The notes under the pieces were generated by a model. It made no database searches and was not told where the DNA came from. It saw only the letters and a program-made list of their open reading frames with translations. A program made the translations under genes and the position numbers. 64,000 nt of DNA, from assembly GCA_002840365.1 (NCBI GenBank), contig PHAO01000001.1, positions 441,337 to 505,336 on the forward strand, given 5' to 3'. Of this stretch, positions 1-27,696 are shown piece after piece. The DNA comes from Candidatus Dojkabacteria bacterium HGW-Dojkabacteria-1 (GTDB lineage: Bacteria; Patescibacteriota; Dojkabacteria; SC72). Every line of letters starts with the position of its first letter. Position 1 is the first letter of the stretch.

Positions 1-279
1 ATAAGGGAATCAATAATTCTTGCTACAATATATATATTTATTAAATTCGTTAAATTTCTGTATATGGTTGTTACAAATGTAGTAACAGTAATAAAGGGAG
101 ACATTCTCCAGTTAATCTTTAAAGACCAAATTGATATTTCAATATAGTCTTTAAATGAAAGGGGTTTTTTCTTTGACATATCAATTTCTAGGCAATTTAA
201 TAGGCTAATTTTAACAAACAAACACTTTTTGAGTCAATATTGTATACATTTGTTAATTCAGGTATAATGTAATATCAAA

Positions 280-990
280 TTACATACTTAGATACCTCTT
301 TTTTTCAGCTTCAGACATTTTCTCAATTGAATATCTTAGAGTAGTTCTGGGCATACTCTTAATATTTTCATTTAAAAATTCTCTTAGTACATTGATATCT
401 CTTTTTCCAAGCTCTCTTAACATCCATCCTACAGCTTTGTGAATTAAATCATGTTTGTGGTTAAGTAATATTCTTGAAATTTTTAAGGTGTCCTCATATT
501 CATTTCTTCTTAAGAAAGCATATGTAGAAACAATAGAGATTCTTTGTTTCCATAGGTCATTTGAATCAGCAAATTGATACAAAATTCCTTTCTCTGTATT
601 TGTAATATACAAATATTCTCCTAATATTTTGTAACAAGAAAGATCTACAATATCCCAATTGTTACATCCTTTTAAATTCTCTATATAGAAAATATATACC
701 TCTTTCTTACCTTCAATATCAGCTTTCTCAAATTTGTAAGTAAGAATAATGTATGAACATAGGCGTACTTCATGTACAGGATGTACCAACAGAGGTTCTA
801 ATTCATCAAAAGAGATCTTTTTGAAATATTTTTTCGCAACAAAACGAATATTTGGAACAGTAATTCCCCAAAATTCATCACCCTCCCCATATTCTCCTTT
901 ACCAGTTTTAAAAAATCTTGGGAAAAATACTGCCTTTTCTTTGTTTGAAAAAGACTTTAAATCACTAAGGATATCTTTAGAAAGGCTCAT
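280..990 (-). CDS. AlkD-like DNA alkylation repair protein (HEAT-like repeat DNA glycosylase family)
   Basis: 236-aa ORF; overall resemblance to the pfam 'DNA alkylation repair enzyme' family, with helical repeats and Trp/Arg-rich motifs; recognition by eye only. Confidence 0.5.
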   Translation of the reverse strand: MSLSKDILSDLKSFSNKEKAVFFPRFFKTGKGEYGEGDEFWGITVPNIRFVAKKYFKKISFDELEPLLVHPVHEVRLCSYIILTYKFEKADIEGKKEVYIFYIENLKGCNNWDIVDLSCYKILGEYLYITNTEKGILYQFADSNDLWKQRISIVSTYAFLRRNEYEDTLKISRILLNHKHDLIHKAVGWMLRELGKRDINVLREFLNENIKSMPRTTLRYSIEKMSEAEKKRYLSM

Positions 991-1031
991 ATGTAATAAT
1001 AGCAGGAAGAAATAATATTAAACATACCCAT

Positions 1032-2399
1032 ATGAAATTAATTTCCCAATTCTCCAATAAATACAACAATATTACATACAAGACCTATGAACTTGAGAAT
1101 GGTATTAAATTACTTCATTTGGATAATCCTGCTACTGTTGATTTTGATTTTGCTCTAATATTTAAAGCAGGTACATCCTTTGAAATGAAAGAGGGTGTTC
1201 CAAAAGGTACTGCACACTTTCTAGAGCATATGTTACTTAATCCGAATTCTACATTTAAGACAAAAGCTGATATCGACAGATTTGAACAAGGAAACAAAGA
1301 TAGACCCGCTATATATACAAATGCATACACCACAAGAAAGAATATATATCTTACATGTCATGCAAATGAACAGGGTGATATGAGAGTACTTGATAGGATG
1401 GAAAGCTTACTTCAATTTCCTAAACGTAAATTTTCAAATCAAATGGAGAAAGAAAGAGGCATTATACTTGCAGAAAAAAGTAGGAAACCAAAGAGAGAGA
1501 AAGATGGATATTTAATGAGTTTAGAGTTTCTTTTTAAAGATATACAAGATGAATTTGCATATGATGTATTAGGAGAAAGTGAAGATATTAAAAGGATAAC
1601 GATAGATGATTTAGAGAAGTTTTACAAAAATAGATATGTTTCGGGTAATACAGTAATTGCAATACAAAGTAATGGGGATTTAAGGAAATCTTTAACTAAC
1701 AGAATTGAAGAAATTGCAAAGAAGATTCCTCTTGGTGAAATGGATAATCATAGAGAAGTAGAATTAGAGAACAAATGGAGAGTAGGGACCTTTACAGAAG
1801 ACAGAGCAAATGGAGTGAGTATATCCTTTATATACTACGACAAAGTAGATAAAAGGATAGATTACAAAAAATATGCAATAGAATATATATATGGAAGATT
1901 GCTTGATTGGTTAACATTTGACATATTGAGAGAACAAATGAGTTTAATATATGATTTCTCAGTATTTAGAATTGGAAACATGTCATACGATTATAATATG
2001 AATGGTTTTAGATTTGTTACAGAGAAGGAAAAGGTAGAAAAGATGCTTCAAGAGCTGTACACACTTCTACATACTACTTCCTTTATCTTTCTTAAATCTA
2101 AAAGAGGAAAAGAGTGGTTTGATGATGTAATAAGTACATATGTATTTCCAAGAACAACAAAATTCAATGAAGAACTTGCCGAAAATGCTATTACAGCCCT
2201 ACTTGAAGATGGAGAAATATTTAACTCTAATACTGCAGTTAGAATTGCTAAAAAGATTACAATATCAGATATCAAAGAGTACTTAACTGAAAGATTAGAA
2301 ATGAAACCCCATATATGGGTAGAGAGTGATATGACTCAAACTCAGATGGATATTTTGATCAACAATTCTCCTTTTTCAAAAAAATTTAATAGGGTATAA
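1032..2399 (+). CDS. M16 family zinc peptidase (insulinase-like)
   Basis: 455 aa; inverted zinc-binding motif HxxEH present as 'HFLEHM' near the N-terminus; length and two-domain layout typical of M16. Confidence 0.7.
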   Translation: MKLISQFSNKYNNITYKTYELENGIKLLHLDNPATVDFDFALIFKAGTSFEMKEGVPKGTAHFLEHMLLNPNSTFKTKADIDRFEQGNKDRPAIYTNAYTTRKNIYLTCHANEQGDMRVLDRMESLLQFPKRKFSNQMEKERGIILAEKSRKPKREKDGYLMSLEFLFKDIQDEFAYDVLGESEDIKRITIDDLEKFYKNRYVSGNTVIAIQSNGDLRKSLTNRIEEIAKKIPLGEMDNHREVELENKWRVGTFTEDRANGVSISFIYYDKVDKRIDYKKYAIEYIYGRLLDWLTFDILREQMSLIYDFSVFRIGNMSYDYNMNGFRFVTEKEKVEKMLQELYTLLHTTSFIFLKSKRGKEWFDDVISTYVFPRTTKFNEELAENAITALLEDGEIFNSNTAVRIAKKITISDIKEYLTERLEMKPHIWVESDMTQTQMDILINNSPFSKKFNRV

Positions 2400-2400
2400 T

Positions 2401-2427
2401 CCATTTCTAATTTTTTTTTAGAAATGT
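2401..2427 (+). terminator. AT-rich palindromic hairpin just after the M16 peptidase stop (weak terminator or attenuator candidate)
   Basis: catttctaa-ttttttt-ttagaaatg: perfect 9-bp inverted repeat around a T7 loop, 1 nt after the stop at 2399. Confidence 0.25.
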
Positions 2428-2430
2428 ACT

Positions 2431-2817
2431 ATGCCTGAAATTAGAGAAACAGGACAATATCAAATAGCATACGAAAGACTTTTACAAGAGCTTCATAAGT
2501 ATAATATTTCTGAAACAGAGTTCGATGATTACATATATCTTCTTTTGGATGAGGTAAAGAACAAAGTTAATGACGCAGGTAAGATACCTGAATACTCATA
2601 TACATTGTATGTAAATCTTCCAATGATTTATGAGTATAGCGGAAGTAATTATATAGAACTTCTATGTGGTTTTAATCCAATACCAGAATATGTAGATGAT
2701 ATGACTATAGAAGGTTCAATAATGATTCCAAAAAATGCAAGTGCAAGAATGAATCTGACAAATGGTGAATATGATGTCGTTATTTCTTGGCATGAAATAT
2801 TTTTAGAAAACAATTGA
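2431..2817 (+). CDS. hypothetical protein
   Basis: 128-aa ORF in an operon-like position after the M16 peptidase gene; no recognisable motif. Confidence 0.4.
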   Translation: MPEIRETGQYQIAYERLLQELHKYNISETEFDDYIYLLLDEVKNKVNDAGKIPEYSYTLYVNLPMIYEYSGSNYIELLCGFNPIPEYVDDMTIEGSIMIPKNASARMNLTNGEYDVVISWHEIFLENN

Positions 2818-2842
2818 CCATTAAGATATGATACATGTAATA

Positions 2843-2865
2843 TTTAGATATACTAAATATCTAAA
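2843..2865 (+). promoter_or_regulatory. candidate palindromic operator upstream of the FNR-family oxidoreductase gene
   Basis: TTTAGATAT-actaa-ATATCTAAA: perfect 9-bp inverted repeat with a 5-nt spacer, 17 nt upstream of the ATG at 2882. Confidence 0.25.
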
Positions 2866-2881
2866 TTGATTATCAATTACA

Positions 2882-3583
2882 ATGGAACTAGTTTTTAAAG
2901 AAATGAAAAAAGAAGCACAAAACGCTTACTCCCTTATCTTCGAACCTAACTCTGAATTCAAATGGAATGCAGGAGAATATCTTGAGATAAAGATGCCACA
3001 TAGTAATGAAGATGATAGAGGAATAGAAAGATATTTCTCAATATCCGCAGCACCAAGTGAAGGAGTAGTCATGATTACTACTCGATTTTTTGAAAATGAA
3101 GCTAGTTCATTTAAAAAAGCCCTTTTTGAGCTAAAAACAGGTGATAAACTTGAAAATGTTAAAAAACCAGAAAACAATGATAGCTTTTTTAATGCAAATA
3201 ACCCAAATAGAGAATATATATTTTTAACAGCAGGTATTGGTATAACACCAGTAAGATCAGTAATAAAGGAATATCATCTTAATAAAAGAGATTTAAAAGG
3301 TATTCTCCTTTATGCAAATAGGGATGATGAATATATATTTGGTGAAGAATTAGAGAGAATGACAAACGATATGCCAGAATTTTCAATACAAAAATATCAT
3401 GGAAAAAGAATTAACAAAGAAGTCCTAGAAAAGCTATTAAAGGAATATGATAACCCAATATTTAATATCTCTGGTACATATGATTTTAATATGCAAATGA
3501 AAGATATTCTCCTTAATCAATTAAAGATAGATTCTTCAAATGTAAAGAGTAGTTCTTTTGGAAAAGGATATTCTCAATCCTAG
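2882..3583 (+). CDS. FNR-family FAD/NAD(P)-binding oxidoreductase
   Basis: RxYS-like FAD motif (ERYFSISAAP) and GxGxxP NAD(P) motif (AGIGITP); 233 aa. Confidence 0.55.
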   Translation: MELVFKEMKKEAQNAYSLIFEPNSEFKWNAGEYLEIKMPHSNEDDRGIERYFSISAAPSEGVVMITTRFFENEASSFKKALFELKTGDKLENVKKPENNDSFFNANNPNREYIFLTAGIGITPVRSVIKEYHLNKRDLKGILLYANRDDEYIFGEELERMTNDMPEFSIQKYHGKRINKEVLEKLLKEYDNPIFNISGTYDFNMQMKDILLNQLKIDSSNVKSSSFGKGYSQS

Positions 3584-4104
3584 TTTTTCATAAATTTCCT
3601 TATCTCTTTTTTAAGATATTCAATATCCTCATAACTATGATTATCATCCCTTTCATTGGGTCTTTTGTACTCTGTTGTTTTTACATTAAGACTCTTTGCC
3701 TTAAGTATTGTATCTAACTCTTTGTATCCAATTACCGGATCTTTAGGTTTTTGTATGAACAAAGCCTTTGTTTTTAAATTTTCCAATAGATAATCTACCT
3801 CATCACCCCTATTTAATGCCCAGTAGTAGGGGAAGCCAATAAATATATATGCGCCTACATCAAGGTATCCTAGCTTTTGTGCCTTCATACCTAATATACA
3901 ACCTGCACTCTTTCCTATTACATATGTTTTCCCTTGTATTTTTAAACCCATTATCTTATCTAATTCAGTATTCCAATCAATATTACCATCACCTATCCAA
4001 TGATTATAAAAGAGCATTAGTTTATCCTTTTCATCAAAGCTATCACGCAAAGATTCACACCATTGCTTATTATCTTTGTTGTTACCTGGGAGAAATAGAT
4101 ACAT
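3580..4104 (-). CDS. small alpha/beta serine hydrolase (YdeN/RBBP9-like esterase)
   Basis: 174 aa; GxSxG nucleophile elbow 'GKSAG'; Asp and His candidates in the C-terminal part (DDNHSYED). Confidence 0.5.
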   Translation of the reverse strand: MYLFLPGNNKDNKQWCESLRDSFDEKDKLMLFYNHWIGDGNIDWNTELDKIMGLKIQGKTYVIGKSAGCILGMKAQKLGYLDVGAYIFIGFPYYWALNRGDEVDYLLENLKTKALFIQKPKDPVIGYKELDTILKAKSLNVKTTEYKRPNERDDNHSYEDIEYLKKEIRKFMKN

Positions 4105-4195
4105 ATGCGTATATATTACAATTTATATATACATCTATATTGTAGTCTGTTTGTATTACTAATTCAAACTTAGTTTGGTATAATTCTCTAGTCAT

Positions 4196-4273
4196 GGTGG
4201 CTATAGCTCAATTGGTTAGAGCATCGGTTTGTGGAACCGAGGGTTGTGGGTTCAAGTCCCATTAGCCACCCCA
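4196..4273 (+). tRNA. tRNA-His(GUG): tRNA-His (anticodon GUG) with encoded G-1 and 3' CCA
   Basis: Cloverleaf folded by hand. Acceptor GTGGCTA pairs with TAGCCAC; D arm GCTC/GAGC; anticodon stem TCGGT/ACCGA with loop TTGTGGA; T arm GTGGG-TTCAAGT-CCCAT. An extra 5' G pairs with discriminator C. CCA is present in the genome. Confidence 0.85.
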
Positions 4274-5718
4274 TTTCCCAGTTTTTTGAAATCTACCAGC
4301 AAATCAAAGGGGTTTATGTAATCATATAGCAGATTCTTTCCATCCCATCTGATATTCGAAAGTACAGTGTTAATTAATATTGCTCTTTCTTCATCCAAAG
4401 CATTCTCAAATAGTTCTCCACTGTGCTTTGCAAGTTCTAATACATATTTAGCAGTGATATAGAAAGTATCCTCTGTTTGTTCTGATGAACGGATTTTATC
4501 AGTAACTTCTTTATACAACCTGTCATACTCTTTCGCTTTTTCTTCATAGAAACTACTAGTAATACTACCATCAACATATAGATCATAATTCTTTGATTTC
4601 ATTCTAGAATACCTTTCCTGTTCCCTGCGTAGATTTCTTACTCTGGAAATAGATACTTCTAAATTAGTTTCATTGATTGATTTCAAATCATTTAATATCT
4701 TCTCTGCATCATTTTCTGTTAATCTAATCCTATCAAATGCTTCTGCAAACTGCTTACTCAATTCTTCTTCACTTACATACTGGGCTCCATGTTTACCCTT
4801 ATATTCAGTACAACAATAGGAGTTCTTCCCATTATGCTCCTCTGGGCACATAGAATAACCGCAAATAGCACATCTTATTAATCTTCTATACTTAAATGGT
4901 TTCCCAGCATACTTACCTTTGTTTTTGTTTTGTAATCTACCTTCTCTAATTTCTTGTACTCTGTTAAATAAATCCTCTGATATTATTGTTTCATAACAAT
5001 GAGGGTATTCAATATTCTTCTTCTGATACAAGATGATACCTATATAAAACTTGTTTGTAAGTATTCTAGCAATTTGAGAACCAGCAAATTCAACATTAAA
5101 TAATTCTAGGATTTTCTTTCTCAATGTCCTATCAGAATAACTATTGGTTGAATATAACTCATACATCTTCTTTACAATCAGAGATTCCTCATAGTTAACT
5201 TCAACTGTTTTCTCCTTGTCATTAATTGTAATGTTGTTATATCCATAGGGTGCTTTCGTTAGTAATTCTCCATTCCTCATCTTTTGTTCAAATCTCCTTT
5301 TGACATTATCCCTTATTGAATCAGAATAATACTGTGCTAGTGCAACCCCCATTGAGAATTTAAATAGGTCCACAGCGGGGCTAGATGCCCGTAGAACGAG
5401 GTTATCTGATGGGAAGTGTAATTGTACCTTTTCTCTCTTTCGAAGGTCATCAAACAACGGTAAATAGCGATTGAAATCTCTTAATAACCTATCTATCTTA
5501 TCAGTAATAAGTGCAACTGTTTTATTCGTTTCTTCTATCGTTTTTAATACTTCTTCAAATTGCTTTCTATTCCCTTTATATGCACTTTCTGAAATATCAA
5601 ATATATCCTTATCACTGTATTCTAGATTATTACTCTTTGCATATTCTATTAATCTTGGTATCTGCTGTTCTGTTGATTGCTCATCTGTTGATACTCTCGC
5701 TAATAGAATTGCTCTCAT
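4252..5718 (-). CDS. large serine recombinase (resolvase/invertase catalytic domain + recombinase domain + zinc ribbon)
   Basis: N-terminal 'AILLARVSTDEQ' catalytic Ser motif; 488 aa; Cys-rich C-terminal zinc ribbon (CAICGYSMC...CCTEYKGKHG); 3' end overlaps the antisense of the tRNA-His 3' end by about 22 nt. Confidence 0.85.
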   Translation of the reverse strand: MRAILLARVSTDEQSTEQQIPRLIEYAKSNNLEYSDKDIFDISESAYKGNRKQFEEVLKTIEETNKTVALITDKIDRLLRDFNRYLPLFDDLRKREKVQLHFPSDNLVLRASSPAVDLFKFSMGVALAQYYSDSIRDNVKRRFEQKMRNGELLTKAPYGYNNITINDKEKTVEVNYEESLIVKKMYELYSTNSYSDRTLRKKILELFNVEFAGSQIARILTNKFYIGIILYQKKNIEYPHCYETIISEDLFNRVQEIREGRLQNKNKGKYAGKPFKYRRLIRCAICGYSMCPEEHNGKNSYCCTEYKGKHGAQYVSEEELSKQFAEAFDRIRLTENDAEKILNDLKSINETNLEVSISRVRNLRREQERYSRMKSKNYDLYVDGSITSSFYEEKAKEYDRLYKEVTDKIRSSEQTEDTFYITAKYVLELAKHSGELFENALDEERAILINTVLSNIRWDGKNLLYDYINPFDLLVDFKKLGNGVANGT

Positions 5719-8700
5719 ACTTTAAAAGATTCTACAATTTGGATTTCTTCTTCGCTTAAATCATATATTTTATAAAGGATTGTATCGATTTCAGATTCAA
5801 TATTTTTTATTTCGAGTACCATTTCTTTTAACTTTTTCTGCTTATCTTTAATCCAATTGTGTAATTTCTCCTTTTCTTCAATTGAAAGTCGTGTTTTCTT
5901 TTTATCAAGTATCTCTACAATTTGATTCCAACCATATTCGAGTATGTTTTTTAAATCTAAATGATATTCATTACCCAAAAATACACTGGTTTCTTCATTT
6001 AACATATAAAAATCTTTATACTTACTTTCAAGATCAAAAACATATTGCTCTATAACTAATATATCCTCTTTGTTAGTATCCTTGATTGGGAATAGGAGTA
6101 ATGGTCCCTTATCAACTTGTAATAATTCCCCAAGTAATTTACCTCTATTTCTGAACCAAAAATTACTAATAGTTGAATTAAGTAGTGCAGTTAAATACTT
6201 TAAATTAATCCTATCAGTAACAATAAAGTTGAGTGCTCTTGAACCATAATATTCAGAGATTGTATAGAAGAATGTAGGATATTTTACTCTAACACCACAC
6301 ACAATTTTATCTCCTGCTTTAAAGAACTGCTCATTTCTCTCCCTATGTAAATAATAGTAGGGTTTGTTAGGAGTTTTATACTTAATTTTCGCATCAATTA
6401 ATACATCTTTGTACTTATTAAAATGAGTATATAAATTGGGGAAATCCTCTAATTTTTTATCATCAAAATTTTTTGAGGACAGGTAAATAATAAAACTATT
6501 TGTACTTCCAACAGAATATCTTGAAACATTAGTATAAAAAGGTTTAATAAATTCTCTTTCAGAAATGTTAAATTTTGTTAAATCATCCACAATAAAACAC
6601 TCATCTGGTGCTCCCACAATTCCCTGTGCTACTTCATTATCATTCAGTGTAAATGTTCTACTCTTTGAAATCTTATCTATAACTTTTTCAAATTTCTCAT
6701 CTGAAAACACTATATTCCCATTACCTATTTTCTCCCTATCTATTGTTGCGTCAATACTTTTTATACTGTCAGAATAGTTTATACTCCTATCATTTAATAC
6801 AAGTTGAATCAAATCCAAACCAATCTGTTTATCTAATATCTTTGTATATTCAACTTTGTATCTATTCTTTACATTCTTTTCTTTTTTAAAAACAAATATC
6901 ATAGTTTGAATACCTGCATCTTTAAAAACTTGAAATCCTCCAAAATCAAAATAGGAGATGATTTCACCCTCATTAAGTATCTTTTCCCTAAAAATTGATG
7001 CACCAGCATTTGTAATCCAATTATTAGGAGCAATAAAACTTAAATATCCATTTTCCTTTAACAAATCAATAGATAAACAAGCAAAATAGGTCCAAATATC
7101 CATTTTCCCTTGATAATAAGGTCCATCATGTAATCCAGTAAATGCTGTTTTATTAGTATATTCTTTAATGTAAGGAGGATTCGCGACTATTACATCAAAA
7201 CCACCATTGTCAATGATATCTTTATACTCAACCCCCCAATTAAATGCTTTATCCCCAGCGATAGCGGGATCATCTATTAGTGAATTACCACACTTAATAT
7301 TTTTATCTAAATTCTGTAAAGGTTCAGTATTCTTCGCTGTTTTTAACCATAATGCAAGTTTTGTAATTTCCACACTTTCTTTGTTAAGATCTACCCCAAA
7401 GAGGTTATTAAGTAGGATTCCATTATTTACACTCGCAGGATCATAATCATCAATTTCAAGATTGAGTTTCCCGGACTCTCTTATATTCTGCAATTTCTCT
7501 TCAAATCTCCTAGCATATTCTTGTTTAAGATAAGTATGTGCTTGATTTAAAATTGCACCACTACCACAAGCAGGATCCAATATCTTAATTTCATTCAATT
7601 TATCGGGATTTTCTTCTAAAAACCTTCCTACTGTATTTTCTACTATGTATTTTGTAATATATTCTGGCGTGTAGAATATTCCATCTTTTTTCCTTCTTCC
7701 CTTTTTTTCAGTAACTGTTAAATCTTCAATCATCTCCAATCTATTATCACTATCCTTTACTTGCATTACATTCTCTTTAATCCTTTCTAAATCAGAAATA
7801 CTTTGCTCAAATATGTGTCCTAGGATATTAACATTAATATCTGTTTGATAATCATATTCCGCAAGTTCTAATATCCTTTTCCAAAAACTATCTAGAATGA
7901 TAAGGTTATCCAATATCTCATCTTTCTTAAACAATCCCCCATTATAAGCATTAATTGGTGGAGTAACTCTTGAATTTCCCTCATCAATAGATTTAAACAA
8001 ACCCTTAAACTCATTCCAAACTCTCTCATCACTACTAGCAAAAGAACTCAATGCTCTCTCATAGGTATTCTTCACTATTTCGTAGGGTAATAATTCTGTT
8101 GTATCTTCACAGAATAGTGTAAATACAATTCTATCTAGTAATTTCTGTGTTTTCTCTAATAATACCTCTGCTGATATACCTTTGTTATTTTCTAATAGAT
8201 GGTTAAGCAATCCCAATCTAACCTCTTTATACTTTGCATAATAATCATTTGTTATATCCTGCTCTTGTTGATTACTTTCCAAAGATAGTACATCTACAAC
8301 ACTGTTATCCTCTTTCTTAATTAGGTTATCTTTTGATAGTAAGAAATAGAATCTTTTAAATTCCTGCTCATCTAGTAAATCTAATACCATAAATCTTTCA
8401 AAATATTCTTGTGATCTAGATTTACTATATAAACGAATCTCTTTGAAATTTGATACTATAATCCATTTACATTTATCTTCTTTACTTGCATAGTTAAATG
8501 CTTGGTCAACAGGTGTTTGCTTTGTATCTCTGTGTTGCTTTTTATCTAAATCTGTTTTTGCATCCTTTAACTCAATTACAACACGAGTATCCTTATTATC
8601 TTTTGTAAAGAACCCTAAACTTCCATCTGGTTCACCAACATTGTTTTCTATTCTTGGATGTTGTATTAAGGTATATTCTTGCTCTGCGGAAGTTACATCA

Positions 8701-8900
8701 TCATAGTTAAGGATATTTTCAAAAAAGGTTTGTAGGAATTTACCTTGAATGCTTTTTTCTTTTGTATTTTCTAAATCACTATCCTTTAATGCTCTCTGCC
8801 ATTTATCTATTAATGTGTTAATCTCCTCTAATTTCTTTCCTGTTGGAAACTCAAAATTTGTGTATTTCTGCTGTAATAATTTCTTGTTAATTAGATTCAT
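5715..8900 (-). CDS. Type IIG/IIL restriction-modification enzyme (MmeI-like single-chain endonuclease plus N6-adenine methyltransferase)
   Basis: 1061 aa. N-terminal PD-(D/E)xK-type motif (EPDGSLGFF...VVIELKDAK). MTase motif I 'ILDPACGSGAILN' and motif IV 'VIVANPPYIKE' (gamma-class NPPY). Long C-terminal TRD-like region. 4-nt overlap with the recombinase gene. Confidence 0.7.
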   Translation of the reverse strand: MNLINKKLLQQKYTNFEFPTGKKLEEINTLIDKWQRALKDSDLENTKEKSIQGKFLQTFFENILNYDDVTSAEQEYTLIQHPRIENNVGEPDGSLGFFTKDNKDTRVVIELKDAKTDLDKKQHRDTKQTPVDQAFNYASKEDKCKWIIVSNFKEIRLYSKSRSQEYFERFMVLDLLDEQEFKRFYFLLSKDNLIKKEDNSVVDVLSLESNQQEQDITNDYYAKYKEVRLGLLNHLLENNKGISAEVLLEKTQKLLDRIVFTLFCEDTTELLPYEIVKNTYERALSSFASSDERVWNEFKGLFKSIDEGNSRVTPPINAYNGGLFKKDEILDNLIILDSFWKRILELAEYDYQTDINVNILGHIFEQSISDLERIKENVMQVKDSDNRLEMIEDLTVTEKKGRRKKDGIFYTPEYITKYIVENTVGRFLEENPDKLNEIKILDPACGSGAILNQAHTYLKQEYARRFEEKLQNIRESGKLNLEIDDYDPASVNNGILLNNLFGVDLNKESVEITKLALWLKTAKNTEPLQNLDKNIKCGNSLIDDPAIAGDKAFNWGVEYKDIIDNGGFDVIVANPPYIKEYTNKTAFTGLHDGPYYQGKMDIWTYFACLSIDLLKENGYLSFIAPNNWITNAGASIFREKILNEGEIISYFDFGGFQVFKDAGIQTMIFVFKKEKNVKNRYKVEYTKILDKQIGLDLIQLVLNDRSINYSDSIKSIDATIDREKIGNGNIVFSDEKFEKVIDKISKSRTFTLNDNEVAQGIVGAPDECFIVDDLTKFNISEREFIKPFYTNVSRYSVGSTNSFIIYLSSKNFDDKKLEDFPNLYTHFNKYKDVLIDAKIKYKTPNKPYYYLHRERNEQFFKAGDKIVCGVRVKYPTFFYTISEYYGSRALNFIVTDRINLKYLTALLNSTISNFWFRNRGKLLGELLQVDKGPLLLFPIKDTNKEDILVIEQYVFDLESKYKDFYMLNEETSVFLGNEYHLDLKNILEYGWNQIVEILDKKKTRLSIEEKEKLHNWIKDKQKKLKEMVLEIKNIESEIDTILYKIYDLSEEEIQIVESFKV

Positions 8901-8912
8901 AGTATATAGTAA

Positions 8913-10064
8913 TTATAAATTGTTTCCACCAACATTAATAGTATCAGTATAACTCTTCAAATCCAATGGTTTGTAGGTTTTTAAATAATTGCTTATAAAT
9001 TCAAAACATTCAAGGTTATCTTCAACAATATTTATACTATTCATTTTATACTTTATCCCATACCAACTTCTGCTGGAATATACACTTTCAATTATCTTCC
9101 GAAATTCTCTTACTCCGAATGTTTTACAGTATTCAATGAAACCATAGATAGATAAGAGGTTGTTTAACTTAATATCTGGATTATTACTAACTAACTCTCT
9201 GAAAAACAACTCTTTATTATCTATTGAGCAGTTTAATAGATTGTAGTTACTAACAATATCATTCCAAACACTTCTCAATACTGATAATGATATATCACTA
9301 TCACATACCTGCACTAAATTGAAATCCCTTTTGAAAACACTACGAATCTTCTGAATACTGTTATATCTTACTTCAATTCTTAATATCTCAAATTTCTTTT
9401 GGCTGTTTATACTATCAAAGATATTAAATTGTATAGCATTTCCTTTCTCAATAGATCTAGAATCGCTTATCCTTCCCTTTTGTAAATCTTTCTTCTTATC
9501 ATACAGAATTACCTCAAATGAATTAGTATGGAATCTAATACTATCTCCCTTATTTCTATAATCCTTTTCTGTTAAATCATACCTTAAACTTAAATCTGTT
9601 TTAGAAACTTCCTTTGTTATGAAATAAGGTATTACATATTCAGGTAAGGGTATATTCTTTGAAAAATGGACTTTACATACTAATGCTTTTTTCAGTACAT
9701 CCGATGATACCTCTACACTCATCTTTCTTAATGAATCTGATAACTTTTCAACTACATTCTCTATATCTTCATTCCTTAACTCATCAAAATTGTTTAAGAA
9801 CACTATCTTTGGGGCGGAGAATTGAATATACAGATAGATTAATGGTAGAGCATTTACCATTTTTTTTCTTAATGTAAGTTGCGGTTTATATATTCTATTC
9901 TTGTAATCTGCTTGTGTAGGGTTGTTATATGCTTCGATATACCCCCTTGCTCCAAAACGAGAGTAGGGCGGATAGTAGAAATTGTAGGTATTCGGAGTAA
10001 AAGCATTGTGATCTAATATCTTAAAATCCTTTTCGTTTAATCTTAATGTAATTGTATCGATCAT
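8913..10064 (-). CDS. Rep_trans-family (pT181 RepC/D-like) rolling-circle replication initiator
   Basis: 383 aa; motifs 'VILYDKKKD' and 'ILRIEVRY' resemble the 'RIYNKKQE' and 'RVEIELKR' signatures of the pT181 Rep family; N-terminal 'MIDTITLRL' similar to Rep_trans N-termini. Confidence 0.5.
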   Translation of the reverse strand: MIDTITLRLNEKDFKILDHNAFTPNTYNFYYPPYSRFGARGYIEAYNNPTQADYKNRIYKPQLTLRKKMVNALPLIYLYIQFSAPKIVFLNNFDELRNEDIENVVEKLSDSLRKMSVEVSSDVLKKALVCKVHFSKNIPLPEYVIPYFITKEVSKTDLSLRYDLTEKDYRNKGDSIRFHTNSFEVILYDKKKDLQKGRISDSRSIEKGNAIQFNIFDSINSQKKFEILRIEVRYNSIQKIRSVFKRDFNLVQVCDSDISLSVLRSVWNDIVSNYNLLNCSIDNKELFFRELVSNNPDIKLNNLLSIYGFIEYCKTFGVREFRKIIESVYSSRSWYGIKYKMNSINIVEDNLECFEFISNYLKTYKPLDLKSYTDTINVGGNNL

Positions 10065-10068
10065 ATTT

Positions 10069-10341
10069 TTATTTTTCTAATTTACTCACTCTACAACCAC
10101 TGTTTGTACCCTTTTTAACTATTTGTACTCTTTCATTGATTTGCATTAATGTGTATATGTACAATGAAAGAGGATTAGTAAGTTCCTCTTGGATAATTGG
10201 AGTAGGATATTCTTTTATTAGTACATTCCGAACCACTTTTCTCATTACAAAGCACAAAAGATACCAATTTAGGTATCTCTTTGATTTTCCCTGGGAGTGA
10301 AGATATAAAATATCATTCTGCCGCCAGTATCGGAACCTCAA
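10069..10341 (-). CDS. small hypothetical protein inside the island
   Basis: 90-aa ORF co-directional with island genes, 4 nt upstream of rep; no motif recognised; may not be real. Confidence 0.25.
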   Translation of the reverse strand: MRFRYWRQNDILYLHSQGKSKRYLNWYLLCFVMRKVVRNVLIKEYPTPIIQEELTNPLSLYIYTLMQINERVQIVKKGTNSGCRVSKLEK

Positions 10342-10544
10342 AGAGGTTGGGCAGTTTTAATATTTATATAACTAATTATAACACAATTTTTTGGACAACA
10401 AAAACTAGCAACTACATTAACAATTGCTCATGGTTAGGAAATAGGTTTTTGAAGTTATTTAGGAACAGGGTAGAATTTATAGATTTAATTGATTCAATAA
10501 ATTTCTGTTCAAAATACGCCCACTGCTTCACCCCATCTTACCTA

Positions 10545-11909
10545 CTAACTACTCGTAGTCCAAGTAACACCACCATACCTATCATTAATATTAGCTTTCT
10601 TGTTTGAATATATTTCATTCAATATTTTTGGTACTGCAGCTAAATCCTTTGGTATTTGAAATAGATGCTCAACAACCTTCCCTCCCTTTGAATCTCGTAC
10701 CCTTTGATCAATAACTAAATAAGCATTAGTAAAAAAATCATACGGAATATACTCACCACCAGGCAATATATCATCAACAGCTCTAGCATGCATTCTCCAA
10801 TTAGACATTTGTTTAATTGCAGCTACCCAATCACTAGGAGTTCTATTTAAATGCCTCGTGGTATTAAGAGACCTTACAACTGTATTGAAATCTATATTCT
10901 TTCTTTCTGCATCTGTTCTTAAAACCTTAGTATACATATAGTCCTCAACACCTACATTAGGTGTGTAATGAGTAATTGCTCTCATACCTGAGACATAGTT
11001 AGCAACCTTACTCATCAAAGCACCACCAGGAAGTGTAATAAACTTTTTCTTATTCTCTATTTGATATCCTAATTGAGTAGGCCCAACAGGAGTAGTAAGT
11101 AGTGGTTTACCACTTTCTTTTTCCATTATCGCAAACAAATCTTTTGTCCCAACAGCAGTTAATTTTCCTCTTACCAAATTGTCATACATAGTTCTAAAAG
11201 GAGTCTTAACTAAAAGACCCCTTTCATCATTAAAACTAAGAATTGTTTCAGCATCCATTTGATATACAAAATCAGGAGCATATCCCTTTACTATTTGTGC
11301 ATAAAGGAAATTAGAAACATCTCTTAATGCTCTAACCTTACCTTTATTCAAATCACTAGAATCTTTTTGTTGCCTAATTAAAAAAGCTCTGCTTTCTCCC
11401 TCTCTTTCATCAATCTCTGCTATCTCAACAGGAATATCCCAAGCAGTAGCAGCATCAATATCTTCAGTATTAGGTTTGCGAGTAATTATTCTTCTAATAC
11501 TTTCCTCTTTTAAATGCTTCTTAAGTAGAGAATCTATACGGTTATACATCTCTTCTCCAATTCTTGGTGATGCTCCTCCTCCATTGTTACATACTAATAG
11601 AAAATCCAGATCGATATTCGAATCTTTTGCTTGTACAAGTAAGTCTTGAAAAGATTTCTCAAACATTGAAGATGTTAAGTATGATTCATCCTCTTCCCAA
11701 AGGGAAATAACTACGCAACCACGAGGTCTTTTTCTTTCAACTTTGTTCTCATTTAAAGACTGTTCCAATTCTGTTACACCTTCTGAATACATTTCTAAAA
11801 TATTCTCTCTTAACACCTCGTTAGGATTTACTTCTGTAGCCTCTATACTGTTGTTAGGTTCCATATACATATACATATATAGGTTAATAATAGATGATAA
11901 CATATTCAA
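10545..11909 (-). CDS. island cargo protein of unknown family
   Basis: 454-aa ORF, first gene of the minus-strand island block; no Walker, NTase, nuclease or capsid signature recognised; three in-frame ATGs within (ATGTAT)3 at the 5' end. Confidence 0.5.
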   Translation of the reverse strand: MNMLSSIINLYMYMYMEPNNSIEATEVNPNEVLRENILEMYSEGVTELEQSLNENKVERKRPRGCVVISLWEEDESYLTSSMFEKSFQDLLVQAKDSNIDLDFLLVCNNGGGASPRIGEEMYNRIDSLLKKHLKEESIRRIITRKPNTEDIDAATAWDIPVEIAEIDEREGESRAFLIRQQKDSSDLNKGKVRALRDVSNFLYAQIVKGYAPDFVYQMDAETILSFNDERGLLVKTPFRTMYDNLVRGKLTAVGTKDLFAIMEKESGKPLLTTPVGPTQLGYQIENKKKFITLPGGALMSKVANYVSGMRAITHYTPNVGVEDYMYTKVLRTDAERKNIDFNTVVRSLNTTRHLNRTPSDWVAAIKQMSNWRMHARAVDDILPGGEYIPYDFFTNAYLVIDQRVRDSKGGKVVEHLFQIPKDLAAVPKILNEIYSNKKANINDRYGGVTWTTSS

Positions 11910-11983
11910 TATGTCTCGACATTTTGCTTTATAGAATAGTATAATTACCCTTATTCAATTCCTTTCAAAAGGAGGTGATTAAA

Positions 11984-12103
11984 GTGCTCAGTAAGCTTTG
12001 GACTAAACTTGTCCATGCTGTGCAGTGGTATTGTTGCTGCAAATGCGACGATTGTCGCAAAGATGACCACTGCGGAGGTCCCAGATGCCATCGCTACGAT
12101 TAG
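11984..12103 (+). CDS. cysteine-rich 39-aa peptide (VLSKLWTKLVHAVQWYCCCKCDDCRKDDHCGGPRCHRYD), GTG start
   Basis: Perfect SD 'AAGGAGGTGA' 5 nt upstream of GTG; 8 Cys and 3 His; region visibly GC-richer than its flanks; followed by a 12-bp hairpin; not in the ORF track because under 60 aa. Confidence 0.4.
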   Translation: MLSKLWTKLVHAVQWYCCCKCDDCRKDDHCGGPRCHRYD

Positions 12104-12120
12104 GATAGGCATCACAAGAG

Positions 12121-12168
12121 GGTAGTCCCAATCACAGATTTATATCTTTCGTATTGGGACTACCTTTT
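12121..12168 (+). terminator. 12-bp perfect stem-loop followed by TTTT (terminator-like)
   Basis: GGTAGTCCCAAT-(20 nt loop)-ATTGGGACTACC then TTTT; 17 nt after the Cys-peptide stop. Confidence 0.35.
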
Positions 12169-12236
12169 CATTCAATTCATTCCTTTCACAAACCTTTACA
12201 TGCTATACTTTATCTATTAAGTTCATTTATATTTGA

Positions 12237-12467
12237 ATGAATAAAAAAATAGCAGTTATCGAAGATGATGGAATATTACTTAAGGCATTAAACATAGAGC
12301 TACTAAGTAAAGGATTTGAAGTAATTTCTGCAACAGATGGAGAGACAGGATTAGGATTGTATATAGCAAAAGCAGTAGTAGAAGCTCATGGTGGTAAAAT
12401 ATGGTTTGAATCTAAAAGTAGAAAAGGAACTACCTTTTACTTTTCTCTTCCAAAAGGTAATAATTAA
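12237..12467 (+). pseudogene. chimeric remnant of a two-component system (receiver N-terminus fused to histidine-kinase HATPase C-terminus)
   Basis: 76-aa ORF: '[36 protein letters not shown]' is receiver-like; '[35 protein letters not shown]' matches the HK G2 box and C-terminal segment; an in-frame deletion scar. Confidence 0.5.
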
Positions 12468-12496
12468 ATATTAACTTAATATCTTTATTCATCTCC

Positions 12497-12925
12497 ATGG
12501 ATAAAAACACAAAATCCACTGCAAGCAGAATTACTGAAGCAGTTTTTGGAATACTCTTTAATCTTCTTTTCTACTATCTCTTAAACAGATTCTATACACT
12601 AGTTCCATTTTTAAATGAAGATTTTGAAAGAATATTACCAATATACAATCTCGCAATAATGGTATCCATCTTTATACATGCTTCTAGAATTCTCTTTGAA
12701 AGTAAAATATACAAAGATATTGGTGAAATCGTTAATACAGGATTTTTTGTATATATTGCATACTTACTTTGGACTATATTTCCATTTAATCTTGAATGGT
12801 TTAACAATACAGCTCTATGGAATATATTGATAAGATTTCTAATTGTAGTTCCTGCATTTATTGCTTTTATTAGTGCTTTTGTATCCCTATTTAAAACCTT
12901 AATAGATATAGGTAGGAAAGTATAA
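12497..12925 (+). CDS. small integral membrane protein (4 TM) of unknown function
   Basis: 142 aa, hydrophobic segments throughout. Confidence 0.5.
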   Translation: MDKNTKSTASRITEAVFGILFNLLFYYLLNRFYTLVPFLNEDFERILPIYNLAIMVSIFIHASRILFESKIYKDIGEIVNTGFFVYIAYLLWTIFPFNLEWFNNTALWNILIRFLIVVPAFIAFISAFVSLFKTLIDIGRKV

Positions 12926-13066
12926 TCCTCTTACCAACCCTATAGTATCATGATATAATATCTCCTGTTCAGTCTTGAGACTTTGCGAGTTGGTCGCTAA
13001 CAAGGTTTCTGTTTTAGACTAAACAAATTGCACTTTAATAATCAACGAACAAATAGGAGATAATCG

Positions 13067-13711
13067 ATGAAAAAGCTTCTTGCTTTAATAGTCCTACTGG
13101 TACTGTGCACTGGCATTGTTCTGGTAACAGAGAAAGTTACAGCGCAAGGTCAGGACACTTGCCCGCAAGGTAATGGCTGGGTTAAGGTTGATGACTTGAG
13201 TGGATATTCTTACACTTTTGATGCTCCCGAAGGGACATTGATTGTGGAGAGCTGCTACAAGGCATCTACCACTGTTGTGTTTGAAACTTACAATCCCCCC
13301 CAGGAATCAGTGACTATTACAAGCACTGTAATAAATCCTGGAGGTCAGATTGCTGAGTTATCACATGCAAGTTTCAAGCTTGTAGTAAAACCAACGGCAA
13401 CACCTCCGATTGAGGAAACGCCTACAGCAACTCCTCCGGTCGAGGAAACGCCTACAGCAACACCTCCGGTCGAGGAAACACCAACGGCAACGCCTCCAGT
13501 TGAGGAAACGCCTACAGCAACACCTCCGGTCGAGGAAACACCAACGGCAACACCTCCAGTTGAGGAAACGCCAAGAGCAACAGAGACACCAGGAGAAATT
13601 ATCACTACGGTTCAAACCGGTGGTGGTGGTATCGCTCCTCTCTTAATCCTGCTAGGCTTTGGAGGTGCATTCCTTCTTTGGGCATTTTTTCGCTCTCGCA
13701 TCGCGAGGTAA
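13067..13711 (+). CDS. secreted cell-surface protein with a conserved N-terminal domain, Thr/Pro/Glu-rich decapeptide repeats and a C-terminal TM anchor
   Basis: Signal peptide. An N-terminal domain of about 80 aa is paralogous to the protein at 37676-38785. TATPPVEETP repeated about 6 times. C-terminal 'GGGG-hydrophobic-RSRIAR' sorting-signal-like tail. GC-richer than the genome by eye. Confidence 0.7.
   Translation: MKKLLALIVLLVLCTGIVLVTEKVTAQGQDTCPQGNGWVKVDDLSGYSYTFDAPEGTLIVESCYKASTTVVFETYNPPQESVTITSTVINPGGQIAELSHASFKLVVKPTATPPIEETPTATPPVEETPTATPPVEETPTATPPVEETPTATPPVEETPTATPPVEETPRATETPGEIITTVQTGGGGIAPLLILLGFGGAFLLWAFFRSRIAR
13391..13590 (+). repeat. 30-nt tandem repeat (about 6.5 copies) encoding the TATPP(V/I)EETP linker
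   Basis: Near-identical 30-mers 'cc(a/t)ac(g/a)gcaac(a/g/t)cctcc(g/a)(a/g)t(t/c)gaggaaac(g/a)' seen directly. Confidence 0.85.
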
Positions 13712-14420
13712 AAAAATAGCCCTTGTGGGAGTTATCCTAGTGCTGATAACTGCTTTTGTTTCAGCACAAACAGTCAAAGAAAATGTGCCAGAAGTGGCGC
13801 AAAGTACTGAGACTGTCGTAGTAACATCTCCTACCCATACCCTTTCGCCTTCGGCAACTCATATCCCTACACAAGTAGTAGTGGAACAAATTGAGGAGCC
13901 AACCCCAATTCCAACCTTACAGCCAACGGAAGAACCGGAGAACATCAGTCTCCAAGGTATCTATACCGTGACTGTCCAGTCGGATGCAATAACCGATTGG
14001 TATAGGAGCTTCTTTAAGGAGCTTAAGGTGGAACTGTGCCAAGAGCCCTGCACTGCAGAGCAAATAATGGCGCAGTTGGGAAAACAAAGCGACAAAGAGT
14101 GGGTAGCAGTCCAACACGGAAGAGTCTTGTACGTCCATTCCGGTTGGAGTATAACTTCTGGTCCCGAGTTTGGAGAAATACTTCTCAGAGTTCATAACTC
14201 TGGAGACCTGAAGTCTGCTGTTATCTGCCTAGAGGAAAGGCGCTGCTTCCAAGTAGTGGACCTTGTACTCCTAGGTAGGGGATCTATAGGTGATAACATA
14301 TCCACTGGAGAGTTGTTCAGCGTAGAACATGGAGACTACTTCATCGTAACTTGCAGTGAACGCTTAATTCCGGGTTTGGAAACACCCAAACTGATCCTCC
14401 AGATTAGAAAAATCGAATAA
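13659..14420 (+). CDS. secreted protein, Thr/Pro-rich N-terminal region plus a Cys-containing C-terminal domain, unknown function
   Basis: ORF-track start at 13659 overlaps the upstream gene by 53 nt; the true start may be GTG 13725, giving a signal peptide MGVILVLITAFVSAQ; GC-richer region. Confidence 0.5.
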   Translation: MEVHSFFGHFFALASRGKKIALVGVILVLITAFVSAQTVKENVPEVAQSTETVVVTSPTHTLSPSATHIPTQVVVEQIEEPTPIPTLQPTEEPENISLQGIYTVTVQSDAITDWYRSFFKELKVELCQEPCTAEQIMAQLGKQSDKEWVAVQHGRVLYVHSGWSITSGPEFGEILLRVHNSGDLKSAVICLEERRCFQVVDLVLLGRGSIGDNISTGELFSVEHGDYFIVTCSERLIPGLETPKLILQIRKIE

Positions 14421-14427
14421 GTGCAAA

Positions 14428-14477
14428 AAGGAAGGGTCTTCGCGACCAAAGCAATAAAGATCCTTCCTTCGATTTTC
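14428..14477. terminator. imperfect 13-bp hairpin between convergent genes (candidate bidirectional terminator)
   Basis: AAGGAAGGGTCTT-(15 nt)-AAAGATCCTTCCTT followed by a T-rich tract. Confidence 0.35.
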
Positions 14478-14671
14478 TAAGACCTCTTTTGAAAAAATTT
14501 CAAATATACAATAGGTAATATACCTACAGTATTAAAAATCAATATACATATATACCATGCTAATTGGTTATTTTTTGCTGCTTTCCACAAGGCAATAGCC
14601 TTCCAAATACCTTCCCACAAAGAAAGTAAAAGAAGAATAGGTAACCATGCCATTAATATTTCTGTATCCAT
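14477..14671 (-). CDS. small 2-TM membrane protein, PLD-nuclease N-terminal (PLDc_N)-like family
   Basis: 64 aa; pattern W..A...WKA.K......W......N..G...Y resembles PLDc_N small membrane proteins. Confidence 0.4.
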   Translation of the reverse strand: MDTEILMAWLPILLLLSLWEGIWKAIALWKAAKNNQLAWYICILIFNTVGILPIVYLKFFQKRS

Positions 14672-14791
14672 ATATAAATATTTTTAACTTATATCAACAT
14701 CATACATTCAAATGAACAATTTTGTTAATATATTTTTCTTAAATATTTTCTGATATAAAAAAAGAGCAAATGGGAACAGAAAGGAGTTAAA

Positions 14792-14920
14792 ATGGTCATT
14801 GTAACTGTTGCATGTCCATGCTGTGGACAGAAGTTTACGGGTACAGGAGAAACGGAACAAGAAGCAAGTGAACTTGCACACGAATCCCTTAATGAACATT
14901 TAGATCTAGAAATTTGTTAA
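14792..14920 (+). CDS. 42-aa zinc-ribbon-like peptide (MVIVTVACPCCGQKFTGTGETEQEASELAHESLNEHLDLEIC)
   Basis: RBS AAAGGAG 7 nt upstream of ATG; CPCC...C motif; followed by a 14-bp perfect hairpin; not in the ORF track because under 60 aa. Confidence 0.35.
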   Translation: MVIVTVACPCCGQKFTGTGETEQEASELAHESLNEHLDLEIC

Positions 14921-22473: not shown

Positions 22474-22687
22474 ATATATTTAAACTAAGGTTATATCAAT
22501 ATTATACTCAATCTTAAAAAATAGTAAATCAATCAAACCTTAGACCTCTAGTATTGCAAGCAAAGAATATAATTAATATTTAGAAAAGGTATTACTATCA
22601 AAATATCAGACTAACATTTTATATCCCTTAGTATTTTTCTGATAATATTTGTTTGACAACACTTTGTAAGTCATGTAACTTTGAAAT

Positions 22688-22929
22688 ACTAGGATATTCA
22701 AATCCTAATAGCTGGCCCTTGAGGCAGTTGTACTGGTATTGGTCCAAACACCTTTATCTTTACTGCTATGGATGAGAATAATATTGTATGGTGGCTTCGG
22801 TCTCCATCGCCTAAATAGTTGATTGGTGTCAAAGCTAATCGTTTATTCTATTTAGGTTAATTCTTGTGCTGAGATGCACATGTTCCTGGTATTGAGCAGT
22901 GCAGTTTGGTGTGCTGTTCTTTTTTTTTT
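22688..22929 (+). ncRNA. candidate small structured RNA ending at an intrinsic terminator
   Basis: 450-nt intergenic gap in a compact genome; several local hairpins (taggat/atccta, ctaaatag/ctatttag, gtgc/gcac); TTGACA-like -35 at 22653; a plus-strand terminator at 22894-22929 with no plus-strand CDS upstream. Confidence 0.2.
22894..22929 (+). terminator. rho-independent terminator (6-bp stem with one G-U, followed by T10)
   Basis: GAGCAG-(14 nt)-CTGTTC followed by TTTTTTTTTT; seen directly. Confidence 0.4.
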
Positions 22930-22931
22930 CT

Positions 22932-24634: not shown

Positions 24635-25396
24635 ATGGATAAATACAAAAATCTCAGGGTATATAACATTGTAATGGGTATCTTCCATTTTATCCAAAGT
24701 GTTTTAATGTTTTTCTTAAGTAATGATTTTTCACTACCAGTAAACACAAGCTATTTAAAATTCGATGTTCAATCATTAACTCTGCAACCACTTTTAGAGA
24801 ATGTCGGAGATTTAAGAGTAGGATACTTAGTAGCTCTTTTCTTACTACTTTCTTCAATTTCTCACTTTGTAATTTCTCTTCCAAAGGTATATGAGTGGTA
24901 TATTGCGAATTTAAAGAAAGGTATTAACTATGCGAGATGGTATGAATATGCAATAAGTTCCTCAGTTATGATTGTCGTAATAGCAATGCTTGTTGGAGTA
25001 TACGATCTTAGTTCCCTTCTTCTCATCTTCTTTATGAATATGATGATGATTCTCTTTGGCCTAATGATGGAACTACATAATCAAGCAACAAAGAGAACAG
25101 ATTGGACTTCATACATATTTGGTTGTATTGCTGGAATTCTTCCATGGGTAGTAATAGCATTGTATCTTTTCGAATCTGGAGATGGAGAAAACAAAGCTCC
25201 TGATTTCGTATATTGGATATTCTTTAGTATATTCCTATTCTTTAATACCTTTGCCGTTAATATGGTACTACAATACAAGAAAGTCGGTAAATGGAGTGAC
25301 TATACATACGGAGAAAAAGTATATATTTTACTTAGTTTAGTTGCAAAATCTCTACTTGCATGGCAAGTATTTGCAGGAACATTAAGACCAGTATAA
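24635..25396 (+). CDS. heliorhodopsin (7-TM retinal protein)
   Basis: 253 aa. Strong resemblance to heliorhodopsin 48C12: 'FHFIQ...NDF(S/A)LP', 'RW(Y/V)EY(A/S)(I/L)SSSVMIV', 'FGCIAGI(L/V)PW' and TM7 'LSLVAKSLLAWQ(V/I)F(A/S)GTL' with Lys238. Glu104 is at the counter-ion position. Confidence 0.8.
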   Translation: MDKYKNLRVYNIVMGIFHFIQSVLMFFLSNDFSLPVNTSYLKFDVQSLTLQPLLENVGDLRVGYLVALFLLLSSISHFVISLPKVYEWYIANLKKGINYARWYEYAISSSVMIVVIAMLVGVYDLSSLLLIFFMNMMMILFGLMMELHNQATKRTDWTSYIFGCIAGILPWVVIALYLFESGDGENKAPDFVYWIFFSIFLFFNTFAVNMVLQYKKVGKWSDYTYGEKVYILLSLVAKSLLAWQVFAGTLRPV

Positions 25397-27693: not shown

Positions 27694-27696
27694 TTG

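Follow-up and report, generated by a model that had tools for sequence, protein, structure and literature searches.

What does a short, GC-rich stretch of DNA encode when open reading frames (ORFs) run through it on both strands? The question is raised by an intergenic cassette in a 64-kb window – the whole stretch of DNA analysed here – from Candidatus Dojkabacteria bacterium HGW-Dojkabacteria-1, whose closed, 734-kb genome belongs to the candidate phyla radiation (CPR) and comes from the Horonobe deep subsurface (PMC5520028). A sequence-only reading of the locus had offered two main possibilities: a horizontally acquired gene for a small Cys-rich peptide, or a locus resembling a type I toxin–antitoxin system, with a hydrophobic peptide encoded on the opposite strand. 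In our analysis, horizontal acquisition of the cassette is well supported by its composition; the hydrophobic ORF on the opposite strand we judge to be a side effect of the genetic code rather than a partner gene. For the plus strand, we tentatively favour an acquired orphan gene led by a Shine–Dalgarno sequence (SD), which would be read from a host promoter and would encode a peptide made of a helix and a Cys7His3 set of residues, probably metal-binding.

Foreign composition

The window as a whole is AT-rich, with about 30–32% GC. The cassette forms a spike of 46.2% GC between flanks of 30.3% (11700–11970) and 28.9% (12170–12470), as the sequence-only reading had noted, and lies between a divergent 454-aa gene (10545–11909, minus strand) and a 76-aa ORF (12237–12467); the genes neighbouring the cassette are CVU76_02385 and CVU76_02390. 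Its plus-strand ORF has a GC content at third codon positions (GC3) of 0.53, against 0.22 ± 0.07 in host genes, among which the maximum is 0.41. Host genes use TGC for 18% of their Cys codons and CGC for about 0% of their Arg codons, whereas this short ORF has TGC five times and CGC twice. The synonymous-codon log-likelihood of the ORF is −17.5, compared with +13.5 ± 5.5 (minimum −5.3) for 39-codon chunks of host genes, so that computing codon adaptation along with local GC content confirmed the spike and placed the ORF as alien to the host. The remaining frames of the GC-rich block are just as alien, and scores turn neutral (about +2) once codon usage is taken from the other GC-rich genes in the window (13067–14420, 26257–28212).

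The proposal of a horizontally acquired small-peptide gene thus holds with respect to composition and to the plus-strand signals described below, but not with respect to provenance: no donor was found in any homology search, nor was a homologue, nor copies in relatives. Both sides of the block carry an imperfect direct repeat with the pattern ATTCAATTC[ATTC]CTTTCA[A/C]AA. As a mark of insertion this repeat may be regarded as suggestive only, and it was dropped as proof, boundary-versus-boundary alignment giving a p value of only ~0.02–0.05. An integron cassette was likewise considered and rejected, there being neither attC-like core sequences nor an integron integrase; the one recombinase present, of the serine type, belongs to a separate island.

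Ordered signals on the plus strand

The spike and its immediate upstream DNA hold, in order, a promoter-like site, an SD, a start codon, a stop codon and a terminator-like hairpin (Table 1). The promoter-like site, which the sequence-only reading did not mention, falls outside the GC-rich block. Sites with 11 of 12 consensus matches are not enriched in the window (three seen, 4.9 expected), and the chance of such a match at exactly the observed place is p ~0.002. A second, weaker site, TTGAAA-16-AATTAT (11968..11941), overlaps it in divergent orientation on the minus strand and could serve the 454-aa gene.

The ideal ribosome-binding site reported earlier was borne out: the GGAGG within the 12-nt SD ends 8 nt ahead of the GTG that opens the 39 codons. 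An origin of this element as a fragment of the 16S 3′ end was rejected, as identity ends beyond the 12-nt anti-SD complement. The TAG stop (12101–12103) is followed after 15 nt by the hairpin, whose arms (12121–12132 and 12153–12164) form the perfect 12-bp stem described previously and extend to ~16 bp, at −25.3 kcal/mol; the accompanying 'T-tract', however, proved to be four T only (12165–12168). Read from the minus-strand side, the hairpin is followed by CTCTTGTG, without a T-run. Promoter, SD, start spacing and post-hairpin T-run are therefore all found on the plus strand. This ordered combination within one intergenic GC spike is not expected to have arisen by chance. The 8-mer AAGGAGGT occurs only once on the plus strand of the window, and intergenic SD-led ORFs of at least 25 aa number only four in the 64 kb.

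Since host-type DNA, and not the block, contains the promoter, the cassette can be pictured as a promoterless unit dropped behind a host promoter. A lineage-specific foreign insert of ~200 bp – comprising a strong SD, the 39-codon ORF and an intrinsic terminator – would have entered the variable region beside tRNA-His, coming to lie downstream of a sigma-70-type promoter of the host, within a divergent promoter region that it would have in common with the 454-aa gene. Transcription from near 11952 to the hairpin would give an RNA of ~215 nt, whose SD would recruit the ribosome for initiation at the GTG at 11984. The product would be an orphan peptide of 39 residues, the tail of which would most plausibly fold round one or two metal ions (a Zn, Cu or Fe–S type knot). 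Among the observations in favour of this account are the neutral codon scores under the usage of the other GC-rich blocks, and the fact that one of these blocks, at 12926–14722, is demonstrably an insertion or deletion relative to related Dojkabacteria.

Table 1. Coordinates of the cassette features and of two genes of the nearby island
Feature	Position	Strand	Remarks
Sigma-70-like promoter TCGACA-18-TATAAT	11916..11945	+	11/12 consensus matches; AT-rich host-type DNA
Direct repeat, left copy	11953..11970	.	ATTCAATTCCTTTCAAAA; imperfect; abuts GC-rich block
Shine–Dalgarno sequence AAAGGAGGTGAT	11967..11978	+	12 nt complementary to canonical 16S 3′ end
GC-rich block	11971..12169	.	Foreign composition: 46.2% GC, codon usage
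39-codon ORF	11984..12103	+	GTG start, TAG stop; VLSKLWTKLVHAVQWYCCCKCDDCRKDDHCGGPRCHRYD
Antisense ORF, 54/53 aa	12115/12112..11951	-	MMPILIVAMASGTSAVVIFATIVAFAATIPLH...; judged a mirror of the sense ORF, not a gene
Hairpin, perfect 12-bp core + TTTT	12118..12168	+	Looks like an intrinsic terminator on the plus strand only
Direct repeat, right copy	12170..12191	.	ATTCAATTCATTCCTTTCACAA
Large serine recombinase	4252-5718		Island
MmeI/Eco57I-type restriction-modification enzyme	5715-8900		Island

The predicted Cys-rich peptide and its hydrophobic mirror

The predicted peptide contains 7 Cys (7/39, 18%), one fewer than the eight counted originally, together with the 3 His reported then, 5 Asp, 2 Trp and 2 Tyr. 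Cys and His make up 26% of it and are clustered in ~23 residues: a predicted N-terminal amphipathic helix (about residues 1–17), which includes one of the His residues, is followed by a C-terminal tail of 23 residues with all 7 Cys and the other 2 His. An AlphaFold model of the 42-aa form, built from the single sequence, places a helix at residues 3–23 and a small hairpin at 32–39 in the Cys tail. This predicted fold is suggestive only; with a predicted local distance difference test (pLDDT) score of 67, the model was too uncertain for a fold search to be made from it. To describe the peptide as metallothionein-like, as had been done, should be understood as a compositional statement only, and metallothionein models gave no match to it (Pfam at E ≤ 0.01, NCBIfam at E ≤ 10). 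Cys-rich short ORFs are not rare in the 64 kb, in which five other off-frame stretches have at least 6 Cys in 30 aa.

The opposite-strand ORF is present as described, with one strongly hydrophobic N-terminal segment (maximum 19-aa Kyte–Doolittle window, 2.26) and a charged tail. It shares its codon register with the sense ORF, so that TGT/TGC (Cys) is read back as ACA/GCA (Thr/Ala), GAC/GAT (Asp) as GTC/ATC (Val/Ile) and AAA (Lys) as TTT (Phe), and codon-by-codon hydropathy is anticorrelated between the two strands (r = −0.70). Given the shared register, the antisense hydrophobicity is an automatic mirror of the sense codons. Such sense–antisense complementarity of hydropathy is a known property of the genetic code (reviewed in PMC2206014 and PMC8431130), and it follows that one of the two facing readings is a by-product of the other.

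This relation bears directly on the idea of a type I toxin–antitoxin pair, in which the minus strand would encode a membrane toxin of 53/54 aa and the plus-strand RNA would act as a fully overlapping antisense antitoxin. In size and shape the ORF does resemble a toxin (fewer than 60 aa, an N-terminal transmembrane segment, a charged tail); the plus strand has a promoter-like site and a hairpin terminator; the hairpin abuts the minus-strand start codon, which it could occlude; and a missing SD means little where 58 of 60 host genes are without one. The toxin-like hydrophobicity, however, is what the mirrored codons produce of themselves. The minus strand has no promoter-like site with at least 9 of 12 matches upstream of 12115, a manual reading of 12116–12240 likewise yielding none, and the nearest upstream gene on that strand is 2.3 kb away to the right. 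The cassette is also single-copy in the window and absent from relatives, its frames have no family match in PADLOC, PHROGs, Pfam or NCBIfam, and a perfect SD, start codon and ORF on the 'antitoxin' strand would have to be put down to coincidence. With the mirror relation and no minus-strand promoter, T-run or family match, we abandon this part of the sequence-only reading as very unlikely.

Points against a translated gene

A number of observations weigh against the acquired gene that we favour. Neither strand has an ORF call at this place in any of the annotation sources of the protein collection (NCBI, JGI/IMG, ENA, Logan and others). The translation signals are unusual for the host: an SD 5-mer core precedes only 2 of 60 long ORFs, both in GC-rich blocks, and none of the 60 starts with GTG. 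Homology searches were negative throughout. Searching the 42-aa peptide against 1.84 billion representative proteins with phmmer gave no homologue (the single match, to a 5126-aa protein without a matching stretch, is a composition artefact), and a concatenate of four frames had no match at E ≤ 10 in an index of 5.8 billion clusters. Scans with a back-translated pattern and tblastn, covering one genome per GTDB species, JGI metagenomes and IMG/VR, turned up no true relative; the sole GTDB genome match (L009) was rejected as spurious, lying inside a histidine-kinase gene of a GC-rich spirochaete. Nor was a relative found by blastn and tblastn in phage and plasmid collections, by a hairpin pattern search in IMG/VR or by exact look-ups of eight possible products.

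The segment is, moreover, absent from the nearest relatives (L018–L021), so there is no evidence of purifying selection. It is intact and 100% identical in four same-species Logan contigs (SRR3546457 and three SRR129010xx runs), and this identity leaves no substitution pattern for a selection test. As far as the data exist, the segment is thus non-conserved and shows no coding-type substitution pattern, the outcome which the sequence-only reading had itself named as counting against its proposal.

A further point comes from a survey of JGI metagenomes and IMG/VR for DNA able to encode the motif CCCKCDDC. At all eight loci obtained, the motif-readable DNA proved to be antisense or off-frame to a real gene, without a Cys-rich gene: the real gene is the register-matched antisense at six and lies in the +1 frame at two. 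The six antisense genes encode a 2243-aa protein, a transmembrane helix and signal peptides of the lipoprotein or secretory kind, for example MTITKIAAVIALAAATLTLGAC. This survey gives the Cys-rich reading a low prior and favours the hydrophobic one. We have weighted the plus-strand signals above this prior because they are specific to the present locus.

The host's use of SDs also has another side. Many genes in the window have a TATAAT-like box 5–12 nt ahead of their ATG, which suggests that mRNAs of this organism are mostly leaderless or have very short leaders, while a handful of small genes use strong SDs. Besides the cassette, the intergenic SD-led ORFs of at least 25 aa are a 27-aa ORF at 63821, an 81-aa ORF (59063–59308, minus strand) whose C-terminal CxxC...CxxC domain resembles those of rubredoxin and rubrerythrin (NCBIfam E = 5e-7 to 9e-5), and a 42-aa ORF (14792–14920, plus strand; MVIVTVACPCCGQKFTGTGETEQEASELAHESLNEHLDLEIC, with the SD GAAAGGAG). 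The last has no Pfam or NCBIfam family, but both the ORF and its SD are conserved in related Dojkabacteria; its counterpart in L019 (6267–6395) is called as a gene, and the differences by codon position (10/7/18) show a third-position bias: it is a real gene. Since SD-led translation of small Cys-containing proteins accordingly occurs in the lineage, the cassette ORF could be translated as well. The same control gene exposes what the cassette is short of, namely conservation.

A possible structured RNA in place of a peptide

Structured RNAs in AT-rich genomes typically appear as GC-rich islands, and the cassette could be read as such: a non-coding RNA of ~215 nt, running from the promoter to the hairpin, in which the ORF would be incidental. 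The whole transcript folds better than its shuffles (z = −6.2), with four local hairpins that include a perfect 8-bp stem (12022–12029/12066–12073). Most of this z-score, however, comes from the terminator. The ORF part alone scores z = −2.6 on both strands, which makes it somewhat over-structured – a further entry against the gene – but falls far behind the whole. No Rfam family was found for the block even at E ≤ 10 and nothing reached gathering score, the only match (MIR159, E = 2.7) being a chance match outside the block; without relatives, there is no covariation to assess. This explanation also leaves the 12-nt SD and a start codon at ideal spacing unaccounted for, and we regard it as rather improbable.

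Genomic setting

The sequence-only reading had placed the cassette at the right edge of an island. It misses that edge by 1.4 kb: judged by same-species contigs from which it is missing, the island occupies 4275–10528, and in two such contigs that span the junction (L001 and L003) the 3′ end of tRNA-His is joined directly to position 10529. Between island and cassette stands the 454-aa gene, which is also present in the island-free genomes. The island itself is an integrative element of 6.25 kb at the 3′ end of tRNA-His, with the core CACCCCAT at both junctions; in addition to the recombinase and the restriction-modification enzyme listed in Table 1, it encodes a 383-aa protein without a family.

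Comparison with relatives shows that the cassette nevertheless sits in a variable region beside tRNA-His. Three relatives with 73–81% nucleotide identity (L018–L020), found as carriers of homologues of a neighbouring 142-aa gene, are collinear with the window from that gene (12497) rightwards; to its left they carry a methyltransferase instead of all the window's content, so that nothing in them corresponds to the DNA between tRNA-His and 12497. In the contigs L001 and L003, the sequence left of tRNA-His (1–4274) differs from the window by 1.45%, whereas to the right (10529–13471) there is one base difference in 2.9 kb; a recent exchange or sweep may have affected the variable region on the right. 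Immediately downstream of the cassette, the 76-aa ORF (plus strand, CVU76_02385) joins, in frame, ~35 residues from the N-terminus of a response-regulator receiver to the last ~40 residues of a histidine-kinase HATPase_c domain; it is what remains of a deleted two-component operon.

This decaying, variable neighbourhood is one argument for the main rival to an acquired gene, an unselected relic. The cassette would be a leftover piece of foreign DNA, of no use to this cell, in which the SD, open frame and terminator of the donor survive; it may be the terminal part of a longer insert whose remainder was later lost. ORFs would then be open on both strands only because GC-rich DNA has few stop codons, and four frames of the block are indeed open for 38–54 codons. 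The fused next ORF, the stretch up to 12497 that relatives do not share, the want of homologues and gene calls, and the fact that no frame is codon-adapted to the host all fit such a scrap. What a relic explains less well is that the unit is complete and ordered, with the stop just ahead of the terminator and a strong promoter at the right distance. The cassette is also identical in contigs that differ by 1.45% in the left flank, though the whole right flank is nearly identical too. On balance we consider a relic somewhat less likely than an acquired gene, while taking it more seriously than any other alternative.

The downstream remnant suggested yet another role, that of a cysteine-sensing leader peptide attenuating the now-decayed two-component operon: consecutive Cys codons within a short ORF, and then a terminator hairpin, do precede it. 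Constrained folding led us to reject this model. With a ribosome footprint over the CCC run, the last Cys or the stop codon, the terminator survives in every fold, and no competing antiterminator pairing appears; the downstream genes, besides, are unrelated to cysteine. We give this model next to no credence.

To the left, the 454-aa gene encodes a GT-A glycosyltransferase of host-like composition. A further possibility is that the peptide is the precursor of a ribosomally synthesized and post-translationally modified peptide (RiPP), either SCIFF/ranthipeptide-like or glycocin-like with Cys glycosylation by this enzyme. The peptide has the appropriate outline, a helix-like leader followed by a Cys/Asp-rich core, and in another organism (L006:467–3287) a precursor-like ORF and an MvdD-type ATP-grasp RiPP maturase immediately precede a homologue of the glycosyltransferase. 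The SCIFF-like core proposed earlier did not hold up, though: NCBIfam, including TIGR03973, gave no family for the 42-aa peptide at E ≤ 10, nor did Pfam, and among the Pfam-scanned ORFs of at least 120 aa at positions 2431–32430 there is no radical SAM/SPASM protein, peptidase-transporter or thiol-disulfide oxidoreductase. All five homologues of the glycosyltransferase lie in unrelated contexts without a Cys-rich short ORF, and none of the four other homologue loci (L005–L008) has a Cys-rich small ORF nearby. As the glycosyltransferase gene is host-like in composition and the cassette foreign, the two did not arrive together. A RiPP precursor is accordingly among the least probable explanations. 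The L006 locus deserves a mention in its own right: its 59-aa precursor-like ORF has a PFGLQFL leader motif and a weak GRASP_targ match (E = 0.039), and the arrangement may represent a glycosylated graspetide cluster.

Several other features of the window came to light. The GC-rich block at 12926–14722 (~47% GC) is missing from related Dojkabacteria, which have a beta-lactamase-family gene near 14977; it encodes a 214-aa secreted protein with at least six PTATPPVEET repeats, preceded by one of the window's few SDs, as well as a 253-aa protein and a DUF5652 protein. An intergenic GC-rich stretch at 22650–22930 (plus strand, up to 44% GC) ends in a hairpin-like sequence and 10 T and may be an unclassified small RNA, without an Rfam match at gathering score. 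A heliorhodopsin gene lies at 24635–25396 (plus strand; Pfam E = 1e-102), and a cyclic di-GMP-II (c-di-GMP-II) riboswitch of the GAG variant at 38801–38884 (minus strand), upstream of a 369-aa gene (37676–38785).

Significance

If the cassette ORF is expressed, it would add a small protein, missed by annotation and gained by horizontal transfer, to a closed CPR genome of 734 kb in which every gene counts, and would show SD-dependent translation at work where SDs are otherwise barely used. A bolder view would see in it a working module recently captured by a minimal CPR symbiont, either as a dual-function RNA – encoding a metal-binding Cys7His3 peptide while silencing a mirror-encoded membrane toxin – or through a Cys-rich peptide glycosylated by the neighbouring orphan GT-A enzyme. 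The second variant, if true, would amount to a new glycosylated-peptide system in Patescibacteria; we regard the module as a long shot. The main value of the locus at present lies in the caution it teaches: a Cys-rich and a 'transmembrane' ORF that face each other in one codon register are one signal, not two genes.

Comparison with known systems

Known kinds of system cover all the readings discussed here, and nothing at the locus is conserved. The ibs/sib-like type I toxin–antitoxin systems likewise place a short hydrophobic ORF opposite an RNA bounded by a promoter and a terminator, but the cassette differs from them in being without a toxin promoter, in having an SD and an ORF on the 'antitoxin' strand, and in being neither repeated nor conserved. 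With SCIFF/ranthipeptide and glycocin precursors, the peptide would share a helical N-terminus, a C-terminal Cys/Asp-rich core and an adjoining GT-A glycosyltransferase; it differs in having no radical SAM maturase, no transporter or peptidase and no match to a hidden Markov model, and its link to the glycosyltransferase is unconserved.

Bacterial metallothioneins (SmtA/BmtA, MymT) and small zinc-finger 'microproteins' resemble the cassette product in their length of fewer than 60 aa, in their richness in Cys and His and in standing alone with their own ribosome-binding site and terminator. The cassette peptide, whose metal binding is putative, departs from them in showing neither sequence nor hidden Markov model similarity, in its predicted N-terminal amphipathic helix with 2 Trp and 2 Tyr, which is unlike metallothioneins, and in being a singleton without a family. 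A last comparison is offered by the same genome. Whereas the 42-aa CPCCG gene is conserved, shows third-position bias and has been called, and the cassette ORF is unconserved, uncalled and foreign in codon usage, both this gene and the 81-aa rubredoxin-like one share with the cassette the same basic design: they are intergenic, short and Cys-containing, and they are led by a strong SD.

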